Sequence record: NC_047927.1
Length of the DNA stretch: 38,823 nt
Reading direction: 5' to 3' (one strand)
Origin: Escherichia phage YZ1
The translations under genes and the position numbers were made by a program. Shown in pieces: positions 7,994 through 15,590 of this stretch. The notes under the pieces were generated by a model, which saw only the letters and a program-made list of their open reading frames with translations, made no database searches and was not told the DNA's origin. Position 1 is the first letter of the stretch, and every line of letters starts with the position of its first letter.

Positions 7994-8692
7994 ATGGCTA
8001 AAGAGCAACTGAAAACTTTCACCACTCCGGTCGCTGGTATTGTTGAGCCTTACGCATGGCTGAACAAAGCAGACACCAAGTTCAACGAGCGTGGTGAGCA
8101 TAAGGTTAACTTGACATTCGACCTGAGCAACCCGAAGGCCCGTAAGATGATTGATGTCTTACAGAAGATTCACGACGATGCGTATGCGAAAGCACTTGCA
8201 GACCACGAGAAGAACCCACCTCAGGTTCAGCGTGGCAAGAAGCCTATTGAACCACGAGAAGGCGACATGCCGTGGATTGAGAATGGTGACGGTACTGTTA
8301 CCATGAAGTTTAAATGCTTCGCGTCTTACCTGAAGGATGGTAAGTCAGAGCCTATCATATTACGGTTCTACGACACCGATGCTAAGTTAATCCGTGACGT
8401 CCCGAATATTGGCGCTGGCTCCAAACTGAAGGTCAAGTTTAAAGTCCTGCCGTTCAAGTGGAACGCTGCGACTGGCGCAAGTGTTAAGCTACAGCTTGAG
8501 TCCTGCCTTCTGGTAGAACTGAAGGAGTGGAAAGGTGATGGTGCTGGTGGCGATGGTGGCTGGGGTGATGATGAAGACCTCGGTACTGGCTACAAAGCGT
8601 CAACCGATGGTGACTTCGGGTCTGATGACTTCGGTGACGATGGTTCCGAAGGTGGGGATGACTCCAACTCTGGTGGCGATTACGACTTCTAA
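7994..8692 (+). CDS. Single-stranded DNA-binding protein (T7 gene 2.5 homolog, 232 aa)
   Basis: Same length as T7 gp2.5; conserved GSKLKVKFKVLPFKWNAATGASVKLQLES block; Gly/Asp-rich acidic tail ending in F. Confidence 0.93.
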   Translation: MAKEQLKTFTTPVAGIVEPYAWLNKADTKFNERGEHKVNLTFDLSNPKARKMIDVLQKIHDDAYAKALADHEKNPPQVQRGKKPIEPREGDMPWIENGDGTVTMKFKCFASYLKDGKSEPIILRFYDTDAKLIRDVPNIGAGSKLKVKFKVLPFKWNAATGASVKLQLESCLLVELKEWKGDGAGGDGGWGDDEDLGTGYKASTDGDFGSDDFGDDGSEGGDDSNSGGDYDF

Positions 8693-9144
8693 TGGCCCAA
8701 TGGTCTGCAAAACGGGGGCACTCTGTGGGTGCCTACCGCTCTGGACTTGAAGCCAAGAACCAGCAGTGGCTGGAACAGAACGGCGTCAAAGCGGAGTACG
8801 AAAGCCATTATATCAACTATGTGATTCCGGCTTCCGACCACAAGTACACACCAGATTTTATCCTTCCTAACGGTATCATCGTGGAGACCAAAGGTATCTT
8901 CGATAGTGATGACCGTAAGAAGCACCTTCTGGTACGGGAACAGCACCCTGAGTTAGACATTCGGTTCGTGTTCTCAAGTTCCCGCTCCAAGTTATACAAA
9001 GGGTCTCCGACCACGTATGGCGCATGGTGCGAAAAGAACGGCTATAAGTATGCCGATAAGTTCATCCCGGTTGAGTGGCTGCGAGAGGCGACTGTACGTC
9101 TGCCTTCAGGTATACTCATCCCCAAGAAGAAAGGAGTTAAGTGA
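8692..9144 (+). CDS. Endonuclease I, Holliday-junction resolvase (T7 gene 3 homolog, 150 aa)
   Basis: YVIPASDHKYTPDFILPNGIIVETKG and DDRKKHLLVREQHPELDIRFVFSSSRSKLYKGSPTTYG are near-identical to the T7 gp3 catalytic core (PD...E.K). Confidence 0.93.
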   Translation: MAQWSAKRGHSVGAYRSGLEAKNQQWLEQNGVKAEYESHYINYVIPASDHKYTPDFILPNGIIVETKGIFDSDDRKKHLLVREQHPELDIRFVFSSSRSKLYKGSPTTYGAWCEKNGYKYADKFIPVEWLREATVRLPSGILIPKKKGVK

Positions 9145-12044: not shown

Positions 12045-12084
12045 TAGACTCAAGGTCATTCACATCGAGTGGCCTTTATGATTA
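12045..12084 (+). promoter_or_regulatory. Conserved hairpin copy 2 (putative RNase III site, T7 R4.7 position)
   Basis: TAGACTCAAGGTCAT-loop-GTGGCCTTTATGATTA immediately upstream of the DNA polymerase gene. Confidence 0.6.
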
Positions 12085-12104
12085 GACTAAACGGAGGATT
12101 AACC

Positions 12105-14276
12105 ATGTTTGACCTTAAGAGTATCTGGGGTTCTGACATAGAGACCAACGGTCTCCTTGATACAGTCTCCCAGTTTCACTGTGGGGTCCTGATTAACGCC
12201 GAGTCGAATGAGACCCTTAAGTATGGGGTAGCTCCGATGGTCGGTATCGTCGGTGGCTTCAAAGAGTATGTACAGAAGGTGGAAGAGATTGCCGCATCAC
12301 CTGATGGTATGCTGGTATTCCACAACGGTATCAACTATGACGTCCCGTCTATTGACAAGCTGAAGCGTCTGTACTGTGGGAAACGCTTTAACTTCCCGAA
12401 ACACAAGATGATTGATACCTTGGTGCTGGGACGCTTGATGTATCCAAACATTAAGTTCTCAGACATGGGCGCAGTGAAAGCTGGTCGTCTGCCACCTAAG
12501 ATGATGGGACGCCAGTCTCTTGAGGCTTGGGGCTATCGTCTCGGTGAGATGAAAGGTGAGTACAAACACGATTACGTTGCCAAGTGCAAGGCTGAAGGTA
12601 TCGAATATAAGGCTGGGGACGAATGGTTGTTCCCATCTCAGGAGATGCTAGACTATAACGTTCAAGACGTTGTGGTCACACTGGCGTTGTTCAAGAAGTT
12701 CCTGACTGACAAGTATTACTTCCAGTCTGAACAGTTCGCTTTCGACCAGATTTATGCGTTGCGTCTGGAACATGATGCTGCGTGGACCTGTGCGAAGATG
12801 GAACGTAACGGCTATCCGATGAACACCGAGATGGTCGAAGGCTTATATCGTGAACTCACCGTCAAACGTGCAGAGTTGTTGGACAAGCTGCGTTCGACTT
12901 TCGGCAGCTGGTACGCACCAAAGGGAGGCAAGGAGTTCTTCAAGCACCCACGGACAGGCAAGGACCTTCCGAAGTATCCGCGAGTCGTGTATCCTAAGGT
13001 CGGGTCAGTATTCAAGAAGCCGAAGAACAAAGCTCAACGCTTAGGTCTGGAACCTTGCGAGTTCGACTCACGAGACACGATGGAGGGAGCGCCGTTCACA
13101 CCTATCACTTACGTTGAGTTTAATCCGGGAAGCGGAGACCACTTAGCGAAAGTCTTGATGGAGCGTGGTTGGGAGCCTGTGGACTTCACTGACACTGGGA
13201 AACCTGTAGTCGATGACGAGACGTTAGAACACGTTAAGCTACCAGACGCAGAGGCTCAGGCTTGCGTAGAGCTGGTCCGTGAGTATCTGGTAGTCCAGAA
13301 GCGCATAGGTCAGGCGGCTGAAGGTAAGAACGCATGGTTGAAACTTGTAGGTCCAGACGGACGTATGCACGGTTCAATCAACCCATGCGGTGCAGTAACA
13401 GGACGTGCGACTCATAGTTCACCAAACATGGCTCAGGTCCCTGCTAACGGTGCTCCGTATGGTGAGATTTGCCGTGGTGCTTTCGGTGCAGCTTGGAACA
13501 AGACGGATGGTAAGCCAGACCCTTGGATTCAAGTGGGTGTGGATGCTTCAGGTCTTGAGCTTCGTTGTCTGGGGAACCGAGCAGCTCCGTTTGATGGTGG
13601 TGCCTATGCGAAGACTGTGGTCGAAGGTGACATCCACTGGGCCAACGCAGTAAACGCTGGTTTAGCACCTAACGTCCCACGCGATAAATCGAACCACGAC
13701 CATGATGCTTTCCGTAACAACGCTAAGACGTTCATCTATGCGTTCCTGTATGGTGCAGGGGCCGCTAAGATTGGACTGATAGTCGGCGGTGGTAAGAAGG
13801 AAGGTTCAGCTCTCATGAAGAAATTCATTGAGGGTACACCAGCCATCAAGGACCTCAGGGAAGCTGTGAGTAATACGTTAATCTCAGACTCTAAGTGGGT
13901 GGACGGAGAGAACATCGTCAAGTGGAAACGCCGTTGGTTGCGTGGACTTGATGGTCGCCGTATCCACATCCGGTCGCCACACTCAGCACTGAACGCCTTA
14001 CTTCAAGGTGACGGTGCGGTAGTCTGTAAGCACTGGATTGTCGAGACTGAACGTATGCTTGAAGAGGCAGGGTATGTTCACGGCTGGGAGGGAGACTTTG
14101 CGTACATGGCTTGGGTGCATGATGAATTGCAGATTGCGTGTCGTACTCAGGAGATTGCCGAAGAAGTCGTCAAGATTGCGCAACTTGCTATGCGTAAGGT
14201 GGGTGAGTTCTATAACTTTAAATGTGTCCTTGATACGGAGGGTAAGATTGGACCAACGTGGAAAGAATGCCATTGA
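12105..14276 (+). CDS. DNA polymerase, family A (T7 gene 5 homolog, 723 aa from ATG 12105)
   Basis: Exonuclease motif DIETNGL, polymerase motifs NPCGAVTGRATHSSPN, AKTFIYAFLYGAG, YMAWVHDE, C-terminal GPTWKECH; colinear with T7 gp5. Start set at ATG 12105 (SD ACGGAGGA) rather than the track GTG 12069, which lies inside the upstream hairpin. Confidence 0.96.
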   Translation: MFDLKSIWGSDIETNGLLDTVSQFHCGVLINAESNETLKYGVAPMVGIVGGFKEYVQKVEEIAASPDGMLVFHNGINYDVPSIDKLKRLYCGKRFNFPKHKMIDTLVLGRLMYPNIKFSDMGAVKAGRLPPKMMGRQSLEAWGYRLGEMKGEYKHDYVAKCKAEGIEYKAGDEWLFPSQEMLDYNVQDVVVTLALFKKFLTDKYYFQSEQFAFDQIYALRLEHDAAWTCAKMERNGYPMNTEMVEGLYRELTVKRAELLDKLRSTFGSWYAPKGGKEFFKHPRTGKDLPKYPRVVYPKVGSVFKKPKNKAQRLGLEPCEFDSRDTMEGAPFTPITYVEFNPGSGDHLAKVLMERGWEPVDFTDTGKPVVDDETLEHVKLPDAEAQACVELVREYLVVQKRIGQAAEGKNAWLKLVGPDGRMHGSINPCGAVTGRATHSSPNMAQVPANGAPYGEICRGAFGAAWNKTDGKPDPWIQVGVDASGLELRCLGNRAAPFDGGAYAKTVVEGDIHWANAVNAGLAPNVPRDKSNHDHDAFRNNAKTFIYAFLYGAGAAKIGLIVGGGKKEGSALMKKFIEGTPAIKDLREAVSNTLISDSKWVDGENIVKWKRRWLRGLDGRRIHIRSPHSALNALLQGDGAVVCKHWIVETERMLEEAGYVHGWEGDFAYMAWVHDELQIACRTQEIAEEVVKIAQLAMRKVGEFYNFKCVLDTEGKIGPTWKECH

Positions 14277-14664
14277 CGGAAAGTCCCAGCACTTCACTGG
14301 TGCTGCTAGTGAGTTATATGTAAGCTATAGACTGACAGCCAAAGGGCATCAAGTATTCCTCCCAGCATTCACGCAGTCAAAGGCAGACTTGGTGGTCGAT
14401 ATAGACGGGACCCTTACGAGGGTTCAGGTCAAGACCGGAACGAAGCTGAAGAACTGTAATAGCATACAGGTAAGACTGGGAGGATGCGGTAAGCCAACTT
14501 ACAGTCCTGGAGACATAGACCTACTAGCGGTTGTCTATCAGGATTTACTCTGGCTTATACCGTTCACTGAAGAGGTTAGAGTCAAGACCTCTATGTGTAT
14601 AAACTTAACGTCTGACAAGAAGTACGGACAATTTAAACAGGAGAAGACTAATGGCTATTACTAA
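14248..14664 (+). CDS. Putative nuclease-like protein, PD-(D/E)xK / Hjc-like motif arrangement (about 138 aa, proposed TTG start)
   Basis: Open frame continues past the polymerase stop with no ATG; TTG at 14248 has GGAGGG 5 nt upstream. Motifs ASELYV ... KADLVVDIDG ... VQVKTG resemble the E...D...(E/Q)xK layout. Contains AGA/AGG Arg codons, unlike the core genes. Confidence 0.35.
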   Translation: MDQRGKNAIDGKSQHFTGAASELYVSYRLTAKGHQVFLPAFTQSKADLVVDIDGTLTRVQVKTGTKLKNCNSIQVRLGGCGKPTYSPGDIDLLAVVYQDLLWLIPFTEEVRVKTSMCINLTSDKKYGQFKQEKTNGYY

Positions 14665-14938
14665 ACGTATTCGTGTAAGTTTCGACCTGAAGATGGTTGT
14701 TAGCTCAAAGAAAGAAGAGACCATGTGTCACCAACTGGCTGAGGTGACTAAAGCCTACGCTAAGGGTGAGAAGCTGGATGGATTTCAGTTGGCTCTGGTC
14801 AAAGCAGCAATCGAGTCAGGCCCTGAGTCTGCCCTCGAGATTGCCACCAAGAAGGCCATCAAGGAGGGGCTGGTGGCCGCCTTTGATGACTACCAGGTCA
14901 GCGGTGTGTCCAACCTGCGATTCGAGGTCAAGCAATGA
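14651..14938 (+). CDS. gp5.5-like protein (95 aa; T7 gp5.5 binds host H-NS)
   Basis: N-terminus MAITKRIRVSFDL resembles T7 gp5.5 MAMTKKFKVSFDV (from memory); syntenic. Confidence 0.65.
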   Translation: MAITKRIRVSFDLKMVVSSKKEETMCHQLAEVTKAYAKGEKLDGFQLALVKAAIESGPESALEIATKKAIKEGLVAAFDDYQVSGVSNLRFEVKQ

Positions 14939-15144
14939 GTGAATACTTACGGGTCCTAGCGGCCCTTAAGTCCTGCCCGAAGACCTTCCAGTCCAACTAT
15001 GTGCGCAACAACGCTGCACTGGTGGCTGAGGCTGCGAGCCGTGGGCATCTAAGCTGCCTGTCTATGGATGGGCGTAACAACGGTGCGTGGGAGATTACCG
15101 CTGCTGGCACCAAGTTCCTGAACCAACACGGAGGCTGTCTATGA
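14935..15144 (+). CDS. gp5.7 homolog (69 aa)
   Basis: MSEYLRVLAALKSCPKTFQSNYVRNNAALVAEAASRGH is near-identical to T7 gp5.7 as remembered; same length. Confidence 0.8.
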   Translation: MSEYLRVLAALKSCPKTFQSNYVRNNAALVAEAASRGHLSCLSMDGRNNGAWEITAAGTKFLNQHGGCL

Positions 15145-15590
15145 AGATACCTGAAAGTCTGAAAGAGCTGATCCTTGAAATTGGCGAGTGCGATATGGAG
15201 CACCGCAAGTACGCTGAGTTCTACGCCTCTTGGTCATTCACCCTGACTGAGAAGGATGTTGAGGCCTACGCCGAGTCTCACGCTGAGGCCTATGAGTGGC
15301 GTCCATTCATCGGGCTGACCATCGTAGCCAGTGGTATGTGGAGTGACAGCCATGGTTCAGAGGTAAATGACTGGGGCGTATATCGCCAAGTTGAGAAGGA
15401 GACCGAAATGTCTTCCAACTTCTGGAGCCTGATGTCACACCTAAACTCAGAGGACAACGACATGGCCCATGAGTTCGCCAACAAATGGCTGAAGCCTGAG
15501 GTGACTCTCGAACGTATTGAGGAGCCGAAAGTGCCCTTGATGCCATATGCAGTCGCTATGGCTACAGGAGGTCTGGACGATGGGTGCTGA
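15141..15590 (+). CDS. Hypothetical acidic protein (149 aa) in the gp5.9 slot
   Basis: ATG at 15141 overlaps the gp5.7 stop (ATGA); strongly acidic composition; overlaps the start of the exonuclease gene as T7 5.9 does. Confidence 0.55.
   Translation: MKIPESLKELILEIGECDMEHRKYAEFYASWSFTLTEKDVEAYAESHAEAYEWRPFIGLTIVASGMWSDSHGSEVNDWGVYRQVEKETEMSSNFWSLMSHLNSEDNDMAHEFANKWLKPEVTLERIEEPKVPLMPYAVAMATGGLDDGC

Follow-up and report, generated by a model that had tools for sequence, protein, structure and literature searches.

The open reading frame (ORF) at 14248..14664 on the forward strand of Escherichia phage YZ1 (NC_047927.1; the whole 38,823-nt stretch analysed is referred to as the window) is a genuine gene, the Kayfunavirus version of T7 gene 5.3, and encodes a predicted 138-aa PD-(D/E)XK endonuclease (PDDEXK_5 / I-Ssp6803I-like), as assigned from Pfam, profile searches, a structural model and dN/dS. 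From its sequence and those of its relatives, the product is probably a free-standing homing-type endonuclease carried as a mobile, "selfish" cassette. Three readings had been offered in the first-pass annotation (a mobile homing-type nuclease, a degenerate or inactive nuclease-fold protein, and a frameshift-dependent extension of the DNA polymerase), and it is the first of these that the comparative evidence favors. The gene 5.3 system belongs to an already known kind, and is not a new one.

Reading frame, family and relatives of gene 5.3

Gene 5, encoding the T7-type DNA polymerase, occupies 12069..14276 on the forward strand when the ORF is taken mechanically from GTG 12069, and its relatives begin with MFDLK, corresponding to ATG 12105 in the window. 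The polymerase stop codon, TGA, lies at 14274-14276, behind a C-terminus (...KECH*) shared by all loci, and the last 29 nt of gene 5 overlap gene 5.3, which covers the final 9 polymerase codons (IGPTWKECH). No stop codon interrupts the +1 frame, relative to gene 5, between 14038 and the TAA at 14662-14664. Initiation was assigned to the TTG at 14248..14250 (forward strand) from the sequence, from two relatives with an upstream in-frame stop and from the GenBank annotation of relatives, with a Shine-Dalgarno sequence, GGAGGG, at 14237..14242 (forward strand) inside the polymerase codons Thr-Glu-Gly, and a 5-nt spacer, TAAGA, between the two; this spacing and the 9-codon overlap, both described previously, can be read directly from the sequence. 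The open frame described in the first-pass annotation was also found, but not its supposed lack of an ATG, as one in-frame ATG is present (M116, 14593-14595), which lies too far downstream to be fit as the start. Similarly, TTG 14248 was retained as the start but not as the sole plausible one, as GTG 14224 and TTG 14230 are in frame 5' of it. Two genomes, HC12 and SAKp10309, have an in-frame TAG immediately before the TTG, which is therefore the earliest canonical start possible in them. The identical TTG was picked in the GenBank annotations of SFPH2, HC12 and SAKp10309, and gene 5.3 was left unannotated in Zappy and NS1. Folding of 14205-14300 showed RNA structure over the Shine-Dalgarno sequence and TTG that was not above that of shuffled sequences (z = +1.2).

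Searching a representative library with the gene 5.3 product returned 266 homologues at E ≤ 0.001. Comparison of gene 5.3 alleles gave dN/dS values of 0.03–0.08 at dS of 0.5–1.7, and the gene is under strong purifying selection. The divergent codon usage claimed from inspection of the sequence was borne out, with a codon adaptation index (CAI) of 0.566 against a mean of 0.705 for the core (reference, 15 core genes), a value exceeded by 99.9% of 138-codon core chunks, and with AGA (three) and ATA (five) codons enriched about 8-fold. GC content was 45.6%, versus 50.4% for the window.

Residues 14-124 were assigned to Pfam PF11645 (PDDEXK_5) with 42.3 bits against a gathering cut-off of 26.1 (E = 9.4e-11), a threshold likewise passed by gp5.3 of T7, Kvp1 and KP32, while an NCBIfam search gave no model matching the window protein or T7 gp5.3. 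A profile of 81 homologues matched I-Ssp6803I (PDB 2OST) at E = 1.1e-15, the family profile being needed for this match because a single-sequence PDB search gave a marginal one (E = 0.16). An AlphaFold model of the 138-aa protein (pLDDT 87.9, pTM 0.81) was searched using Foldseek, and the top four matches were 2OST chains (E = 2e-8 to 2e-7, TM 0.67–0.74), the best with E = 2e-8 and TM 0.74/0.70, in agreement with the nuclease fold proposed earlier. I-Ssp6803I is the founding member of the same Pfam family, is of comparable size (about 130–150 aa), and carries the same D...VQVK signature, but has about 20% identity to the window protein, and is encoded within the Synechocystis tRNA-fMet group I intron, whereas the window ORF is free-standing and intergenic. 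It is an experimentally active homing endonuclease, acting as a tetramer on a long pseudo-palindromic target (PMC3384342). The archaeal Holliday-junction resolvase Hjc, to which the first-pass annotation had likened the product, was the next-best structural match and has the same core restriction-endonuclease-like fold. Its Foldseek matches were far weaker than those of 2OST (E about 1e-3, TM 0.37–0.52), its motif is ExK rather than the QxK of the window protein, and a resolvase, endonuclease I, is already encoded by YZ1; an Hjc-type Holliday junction resolvase was rejected on the fold match and the QxK motif. All PADLOC matches were sub-threshold, including one at E = 0.027 to a "homing endonuclease" model, and they were excluded from the evidence.

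By position and sequence, the window ORF is the orthologue of T7 gene 5.3 (NP_041983; gp5.3), with 48% identity over 106 residues (E = 4e-24); T7 gene 5.3 is also a PF11645 member placed directly between gene 5 and gene 5.5. The first-pass annotation had named the same ORF at this position in related phages, with an ordinary start, as a result that would count against its reading, and such ORFs do occur, in the sense that the window ORF is the usual gene 5.3 found in the T7 group. In T7, Kvp1 and KP32, gene 5.3 has its own Shine-Dalgarno sequence and ATG 15–19 nt past the polymerase stop, in differing frames, whereas in the Kayfunavirus form this spacer is lost and the TTG start lies within gene 5. 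Protein length also differs, from 118 aa in T7 gp5.3 and 132 aa in most Kayfunavirus alleles to 138 aa in the window, where 6 extra codons relative to most Kayfunavirus alleles reach into gene 5.5. Homologues in Kvp1, KP32 and Ghunavirus each lie directly 3' of gene 5, and metagenomic relatives with 52% and 38% identity likewise lie directly after it. A literature search found no paper describing T7 gp5.3 as a homing endonuclease, and we know of no demonstration of cleavage, a target site or homing for this protein.

Occupied and empty slots between gene 5 and gene 5.5

DNA of the ORF was present in 25 of 232 related (flank-matching) GenBank phages, in 6 of 80 IMG/VR loci, and in 3 of 21 Kayfunavirus-like IMG/VR loci. 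Three loci (L007–L009) have a polymerase C-terminus with 100% protein identity to the window, yet are without the ORF; these three were used for comparison, the polymerase gene of a further locus, L003, having an indel relative to the window. Identity between the window and SFPH2 was 95–100% within the ORF and 77–90% in the polymerase gene, and the affinity of the window changes at 14236 and again at about 14645, with phiYIO1-1-like flanks surrounding an SFPH2-like cassette. This pattern would equally be produced by ordinary recombination, through which mosaicism is common among T7-like phages, and the neighboring gene 5.5 is likewise highly variable. Decayed or incomplete copies were found in Penshu1 (about 270 bp deleted between two TTCACTG repeats) and NS1 (a partial copy), and two proteins, P0007 and P0010, are truncated.

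The left boundary of the cassette was placed at the 3' end of the polymerase gene, at 14236..14276 (forward strand), where an "occupied-slot" haplotype (ACG GAG GGT ... AAA GAA TGC CAT TGA) has 7 differences, synonymous or in the stop codon, within the final 41 nt of gene 5 (14237, 14240, 14264, 14267, 14270, 14273 and 14275) relative to the nearest ORF-lacking relatives. GGAGGG was kept in 10 of 10 loci whose endonuclease or endonuclease remnant uses the TTG, and was replaced by CGAAGG in 15 Kayfunavirus-like loci with an empty slot or a small ORF, and by CGAGGG in L026, which has an HNH endonuclease with its own start. In empty genomes, the Shine-Dalgarno sequence at the polymerase end is AAGGAG and serves gene 5.5, versus GGAGGG for the TTG in occupied genomes. 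Since this relocation of a Shine-Dalgarno sequence largely explains the 7 differences, they are not clean evidence of target-site immunity, and that candidate interpretation was downgraded. The right boundary was placed at the gene 5.5 Shine-Dalgarno sequence, GGAG, at 14640..14643 (forward strand), within the 3' end of gene 5.3. Gene 5.5 (Gp5.5-like H-NS inhibitor) follows at 14651..14938 (forward strand), its first 14 nt overlapping the end of gene 5.3. Where the slot is empty, gene 5.5 directly adjoins gene 5 (TAATG), the junction in an empty-site relative being ...GGAAGGAGTGTCACTAATGGCTAT..., and in occupied genomes this gene 5/gene 5.5 junction is interrupted by the insertion. Scanning of the empty junction for a pseudo-palindromic target, as for I-Ssp6803I, gave nothing above shuffled controls.

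In two loci (L022 and L025), the gene 5/5.5 slot holds an HNH_3 endonuclease that starts from the same Shine-Dalgarno sequence and TTG, and has 83% identity to the product of the gene adjoining the T3 polymerase gene. The HNH protein of these loci and of SH3, all Kayfunavirus relatives, has the Shine-Dalgarno sequence, the TTG and the first 10 codons in common with the window ORF. T3 gene 5.3 (F-TslI type) resembles the window gene in its slot adjoining gene 5 and in its presumed lifestyle, but is unrelated in fold and motif (HNH_3 rather than PD-(D/E)XK). The T3 gene 5.3-type HNH protein is reportedly a proven free-standing homing endonuclease, a result credited to Bonocora and Shub in 2009. 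We suggest tentatively, and with somewhat less than even confidence, that the last ten codons of the Kayfunavirus polymerase may serve PD-(D/E)XK and HNH occupants alike as a common translation "dock" (GGAGGG and a +1-frame TTG), with gp5.3 an active free-standing homing endonuclease whose target would be the gene 5/5.5 junction. The signal of such a dock would be carried by synonymous positions of the polymerase codons, and two unrelated endonuclease families would plug into it interchangeably, with their first approximately 10 residues in common.

Proposed homing function and alternative readings of the product

For a homing endonuclease in this position, translation from TTG 14248 would be driven by the GGAGGG in synonymous positions of the final polymerase codons, and the level of the nuclease is probably held low by the weak start codon. 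In a mixed infection, the nuclease would cut the gene 5/gene 5.5 region of a relative lacking the ORF, and repair off the nuclease-carrying genome would bring the cassette into the empty site together with some 40 bp from the end of the polymerase gene. For the gene 5.3 product, cleavage of DNA, the target of cleavage and homing are what we infer, and homing is favored because of the patchy distribution, the mosaic history, the atypical codons and GC content, the decayed copies and the rival HNH endonuclease in the slot, and because the closest solved relative, I-Ssp6803I, is a homing endonuclease. Other PF11645-type relatives were found at the polymerase end of a Bruynoghevirus and in tRNA arrays of Vibrio T5-like phages, which are classic homing-endonuclease niches.

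A gene that benefits the phage would likewise be consistent with the very low dN/dS at dS > 1, and there is a smaller, though appreciable, chance that the product is an active PD-(D/E)XK nuclease retained for the phage's own benefit (for example, cutting of competitor-phage or host DNA, help against defence, or processing of replication or recombination intermediates) and not a selfish homing element, its patchiness being ordinary accessory-gene turnover via recombination. Such a role is in keeping with strong purifying selection across large synonymous divergence, with the presence of the gene at the same site in several T7-like phage genera, with a fold whose relatives include Hjc resolvases (Foldseek) and DREN, the non-specific nuclease of SPARDA (bioRxiv 10.1101/2025.04.08.647717), and with its neighbors (5.5, 5.7 and the ORF at 15141-15590), which are variable host-takeover or accessory genes too. 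It fits less well with T7, in which gene 5.3 is non-essential and disruption of gp5.3 rose to dominance during serial laboratory passage (PMC9825161, PMC12153263), or with YZ1 itself, which already has endonuclease I (8692-9144) and gene 6 exonuclease; the T3 gene 5.3-type HNH endonuclease as an alternative occupant of the slot and the homing endonuclease as nearest solved structure also weigh against it.

The motifs ASELYV, KADLVVDIDG and VQVKTG were all found in the gene 5.3 product, in the arrangement first noticed, and contain Glu22 in helix 1 (14311..14313), Asp47 (14386..14388), which is the invariant "D" in the PD motif and is aligned with the YDLV Asp of I-Ssp6803I, and Gln60-Val61-Lys62, a QxK form of (D/E)xK (14425..14433), for which I-Ssp6803I has an identical VQVK; all three are encoded on the forward strand. 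Among 81–84 homologues, D47 and Q60 were invariant and V61 and K62 at least 90% conserved, and Glu22 is kept in 90% or more of family members. Glu22 is aligned opposite a Gln in I-Ssp6803I, so catalytic roles are not transferable one-to-one between the two proteins. The first-pass annotation had taken the Gln in place of the expected catalytic acid as a possible sign of degeneracy, and a nuclease-fold protein that is degenerate or has lost catalysis, either a relic or a DNA-binding protein, would account for the QxK motif, the weak start codon, the poor codons and the truncated or deleted copies in some relatives. We consider this improbable: Gln60 is no sign of decay because it is invariant in the family and present in I-Ssp6803I, an active enzyme (PMC3384342), the other active-site residues D47, K62 and E22 are conserved, the dN/dS range given above is incompatible with a relic, and the window copy is full length, with a high-confidence model.

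Least probable is that the ORF has no initiation of its own and extends the DNA polymerase through +1 frameshifting (or stop bypass). The ORF does sit in the +1 frame of gene 5 with a 29-nt overlap, and the UGA-C at which the polymerase ends in ORF-carrying genomes is a weak context for termination. Against this reading, 14233-14276 contains neither a slippery nor a prfB-like site, the GGAGGG lies 26 nt and not 3 nt upstream of the P-site codon CAU, which cannot re-pair on AUU, the polymerase ends in ...CH* in 86 of 86 loci, with or without the downstream ORF, the T7, Kvp1 and KP32 orthologues start independently in varying frames, family members are stand-alone proteins, about 130 aa long, with N-termini that match ORF residues 10–14 in the alignment, and GGAGGG 5 nt from the TTG is a canonical initiation site that is lost in the empty slot.

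Significance for T7-like phages

T7 gene 5.3, a long-known orphan of a model phage, gains a concrete and testable candidate function. If the homing reading is true, a function would be given to a 40-year-old orphan gene, and gp5.3 would be, to our knowledge, the first free-standing PD-(D/E)XK homing endonuclease shown in a phage. The Gln that appears to be the "wrong" catalytic residue is the norm of the family. Gene 5.3 is easily missed or mis-started, given its TTG start, its overlap with gene 5 and the genomes in which it is unannotated, and caution is warranted in annotation of this interval. The T7-like gene 5/5.5 junction emerges as a landing site for which two unrelated families of endonuclease compete, and for phage engineering and therapy it matters that nucleases of this sort can cause co-infecting phages to recombine and to exclude one another's markers.

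Layout, start codon and orthology

The window belongs to a T7-group phage of Kayfunavirus type; its region 13800-15200 matches 232 phages in GenBank, most of them listed under Escherichia, Salmonella or Kayfunavirus. On the + strand, gene 5 (DNA polymerase) stops at a TGA (14274-14276), and the ORF, in the +1 frame of gene 5, runs from a TTG (14248-14250), placed 5 nt after a GGAGGG Shine-Dalgarno motif (14237-14242), to a TAA (14662-14664), sharing the nine final polymerase codons. The mechanically called polymerase ORF starts at GTG 12069; relatives start with MFDLK, corresponding to ATG 12105 in the window, which is probably the true gene 5 start.

The first-pass annotation had described the frame as free of ATG codons and the TTG as the only plausible initiator. 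One in-frame ATG exists (Met116, 14593-14595), useless as a start, and GTG 14224 and TTG 14230 lie upstream in frame in the window; the TTG start itself is supported by relatives. In HC12 and SAKp10309 an in-frame TAG immediately precedes the TTG, which is therefore the first possible canonical start there, and GenBank annotators chose the same position in SFPH2, HC12 and SAKp10309. At the 3' end (14640-14664), a 1-nt indel (GGAG-AAGAC in the window and HC12 vs GGAGTAACAC in SFPH2) abolishes the stop codon that normally follows Glu132, so that the window allele is 138 aa long and reaches 14 nt into gene 5.5; on its right side, the cassette formed by the ORF and the polymerase 3' end has its recombination boundary at this junction.

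The 138-aa product matched PF11645 (PDDEXK_5; 42.3 bits vs a curated threshold of 26.1) and PHROG 5018, and an exhaustive HMMER scan returned 266 homologues at E<=0.001, most of them stand-alone proteins, about 130 aa long, that begin opposite ORF residues 10-14 in the alignment. Among Kayfunavirus alleles, dN/dS was 0.03-0.08 at dS 0.5-1.7; judged from these comparisons, the ORF is a real gene whose protein is under strong purifying selection.

By tblastn against phage genomes, identity was 48% to T7 gene 5.3 (E=4e-24), 52-55% to Kvp1 gene 5.3 and the KP32 group, and 47% to a Ghunavirus gene, all likewise PF11645 members lying directly 3' of gene 5 and 5' of gene 5.5; metagenomic relatives (52% and 38% identity) occupy the same position. 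By sequence and position, the ORF is the T7 gene 5.3 counterpart. The T7, Kvp1 and KP32 genes start from an ATG of their own with a separate Shine-Dalgarno, 15-19 nt past the polymerase stop, whereas the Kayfunavirus gene has lost this spacer and would initiate inside gene 5.

Fold and active site

All motifs named in the first-pass annotation were found in the sequence. A profile of 81 homologues matched I-Ssp6803I (PDB 2OST) at E=1.1e-15, and an AlphaFold model built on the 81-homologue alignment (pLDDT 87.9, pTM 0.81) returned four 2OST chains as its top Foldseek matches (E=2e-8 to 2e-7, TM up to 0.74), with archaeal Hjc resolvases, EcoRV and the SPARDA DREN domain far behind. The initial Hjc / PD-(D/E)xK guess was right in kind (PF11645, 2OST fold), but the family proper is a homing endonuclease's (I-Ssp6803I), Hjc matching far more weakly.

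I-Ssp6803I is a homing endonuclease with a 23-bp target and one bound catalytic metal ion (PMC3384342). Three residues, G18, D47 and Q60, never vary across the aligned family, and E22, G33, P39, V61 and K62 are conserved in at least 90% of it. I-Ssp6803I has the same D...VQVK signature, as YD...VQVK; Glu22, however, aligns with Gln in I-Ssp6803I, so residue roles are not carried over one-to-one. Gln60 had been taken as an oddity in place of a catalytic Glu; since it is invariant in the family and present in I-Ssp6803I, it is a normal family residue and no sign of decay.

Distribution, decay and the gene 5/5.5 slot

ORF DNA was present in only 25 of the 232 flank-matching phages and, among 80 IMG/VR loci recovered by polymerase C-terminus, in 3/21 Kayfunavirus-like and 3/59 more distant loci; three loci (L007-L009) lack it even though their polymerase C-termini match the window's at every residue (100% protein identity). 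Over the final 1.4 kb of the polymerase gene, SFPH2 and the window diverge by 16%, vs an ORF 97% identical; the window resembles phiYIO1-1 up to 14236, SFPH2 from there to ~14645, at the gene 5.5 GGAG, and phiYIO1-1 again beyond. The atypical codon usage noted earlier was borne out, with a codon adaptation to phage core genes of 0.566, below 99.9% of equal-sized core chunks; GC content is 45.6% vs 50.4% for the window.

Escherichia phage Penshu1 (L090, 685-790) carries a decayed gene 5.3 remnant with the gene ends alone kept, having lost ~270 bp between two TTCACTG copies (flanking the corresponding stretch at 14293-14299 and 14563-14569 in the window) and a further 1 nt. Citrobacter phage NS1 (L091) has a partial, unannotated copy, and truncated gene 5.3-type proteins were found in metagenomes. 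Distant PF11645 genes lie within tRNA gene arrays of T5-like Vibrio phages (River4, L089, 2495-2887), and one in Pseudomonas phage BUCT640 (a Bruynoghevirus with split polymerase, L087, 231-638) overlaps 'DNA polymerase part III' at its end; both are typical homing-endonuclease niches.

Where the gene 5/5.5 slot is empty, gene 5.5 overlaps the polymerase stop as TAATG. In phiYIO1-1 (L003:1477-1635), L007 and L011 it holds a 52-aa ORF (phrog_20928, no known function) beginning at an ATG that overlaps the polymerase stop. In the Citrobacter phage SH3-like loci L022 (2832-3173) and L025 the occupant is an endonuclease of the HNH_3 family (Pfam E=5e-19), with 83% identity to the gene adjoining the phage T3 polymerase gene. 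Bonocora and Shub are said to have proven in 2009 that T3 gene 5.3 is a free-standing homing endonuclease. The L022/L025 HNH protein has GGAGGG, TTG and the first ten codons (LDQRGKSAID) in common with the window PD-(D/E)XK protein, with no other canonical start upstream of its conserved TLRFH segment; in T3 and a further locus, L026, this HNH gene starts from a separate Shine-Dalgarno and ATG.

The polymerase end reads ACG GAG GGT AA(G/A) ATT GG ... AAA GA(A/G) TG(C/T) CAT TGA in 10/10 loci with a TTG-using endonuclease or remnant, Penshu1 included, and ACC GAA GG(T/G) ... AAG GAG TG(T/C) CA(C/T), then TAA, TAG or TGA, in the Kayfunavirus-like loci with an empty slot or small ORF (n=15), all these loci being phylogenetically non-independent; L026 matches neither pattern. 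Occupied genomes use GGAGGG as a translation signal for the TTG, and empty ones use AAGGAG for the next gene's ATG. Because such signals explain most of the differences, the haplotype supports the TTG start and is ambiguous evidence for target-site immunity.

Another gene that comes and goes is a 149-aa ORF (15141-15590; phrog_4382, no known function), which lies between gene 5.7 and the exonuclease gene; SFPH2, phiYIO1-1 and L007 carry it, and most other aligned relatives lack it (e.g. HC12, SAKp10309, L008, L009, L021, L022). Alleles of gene 5.5 (H-NS inhibitor; window 14651-14938 vs L008-L018) have protein identities of 28-97%, and phages with divergent gene 5.5 have flanking polymerase and exonuclease >90% identical. 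The gene 5 to gene 6 interval is, on these alignments, a hot spot of allele replacement.

A probable homing-type endonuclease

The ORF product is probably a free-standing homing-type endonuclease, the best supported of the readings first proposed, given its patchy and mosaic distribution, decayed copies and 2OST family. Expression from the TTG, coupled to the gene 5 3' end, would be low, the nuclease would cut relatives lacking the ORF near the gene 5/5.5 junction, and recombinational repair would copy the ORF into the cut genome. An accessory nuclease maintained for the phage's own benefit would fit the very low dN/dS, but is unlikely: T7 gp5.3 is dispensable, its disruption even taking over during serial passage (PMC12153263, PMC9825161), the phage already encodes endonuclease I (8692-9144), and a homing endonuclease fills the same slot in relatives. 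A degenerate or inactive nuclease-fold protein is very improbable, being contradicted by the conserved residues and the purifying selection on the protein. A frameshift-dependent polymerase extension can practically be dismissed, as there is no re-pairing site, 86/86 polymerases end in ...CH*, and orthologues start independently, in differing frames.

The PDDEXK_5 family was already known (Pfam; Steczkiewicz et al. 2012, PMC3424549), and the gene is T7 gene 5.3, catalogued long ago and already annotated in relatives as 'hypothetical protein' or 'endonuclease'. Of modest interest are T7 gp5.3, for which no test as a homing enzyme appears to have been reported, and an initiation site common to two unrelated endonuclease families and written into the final polymerase codons.
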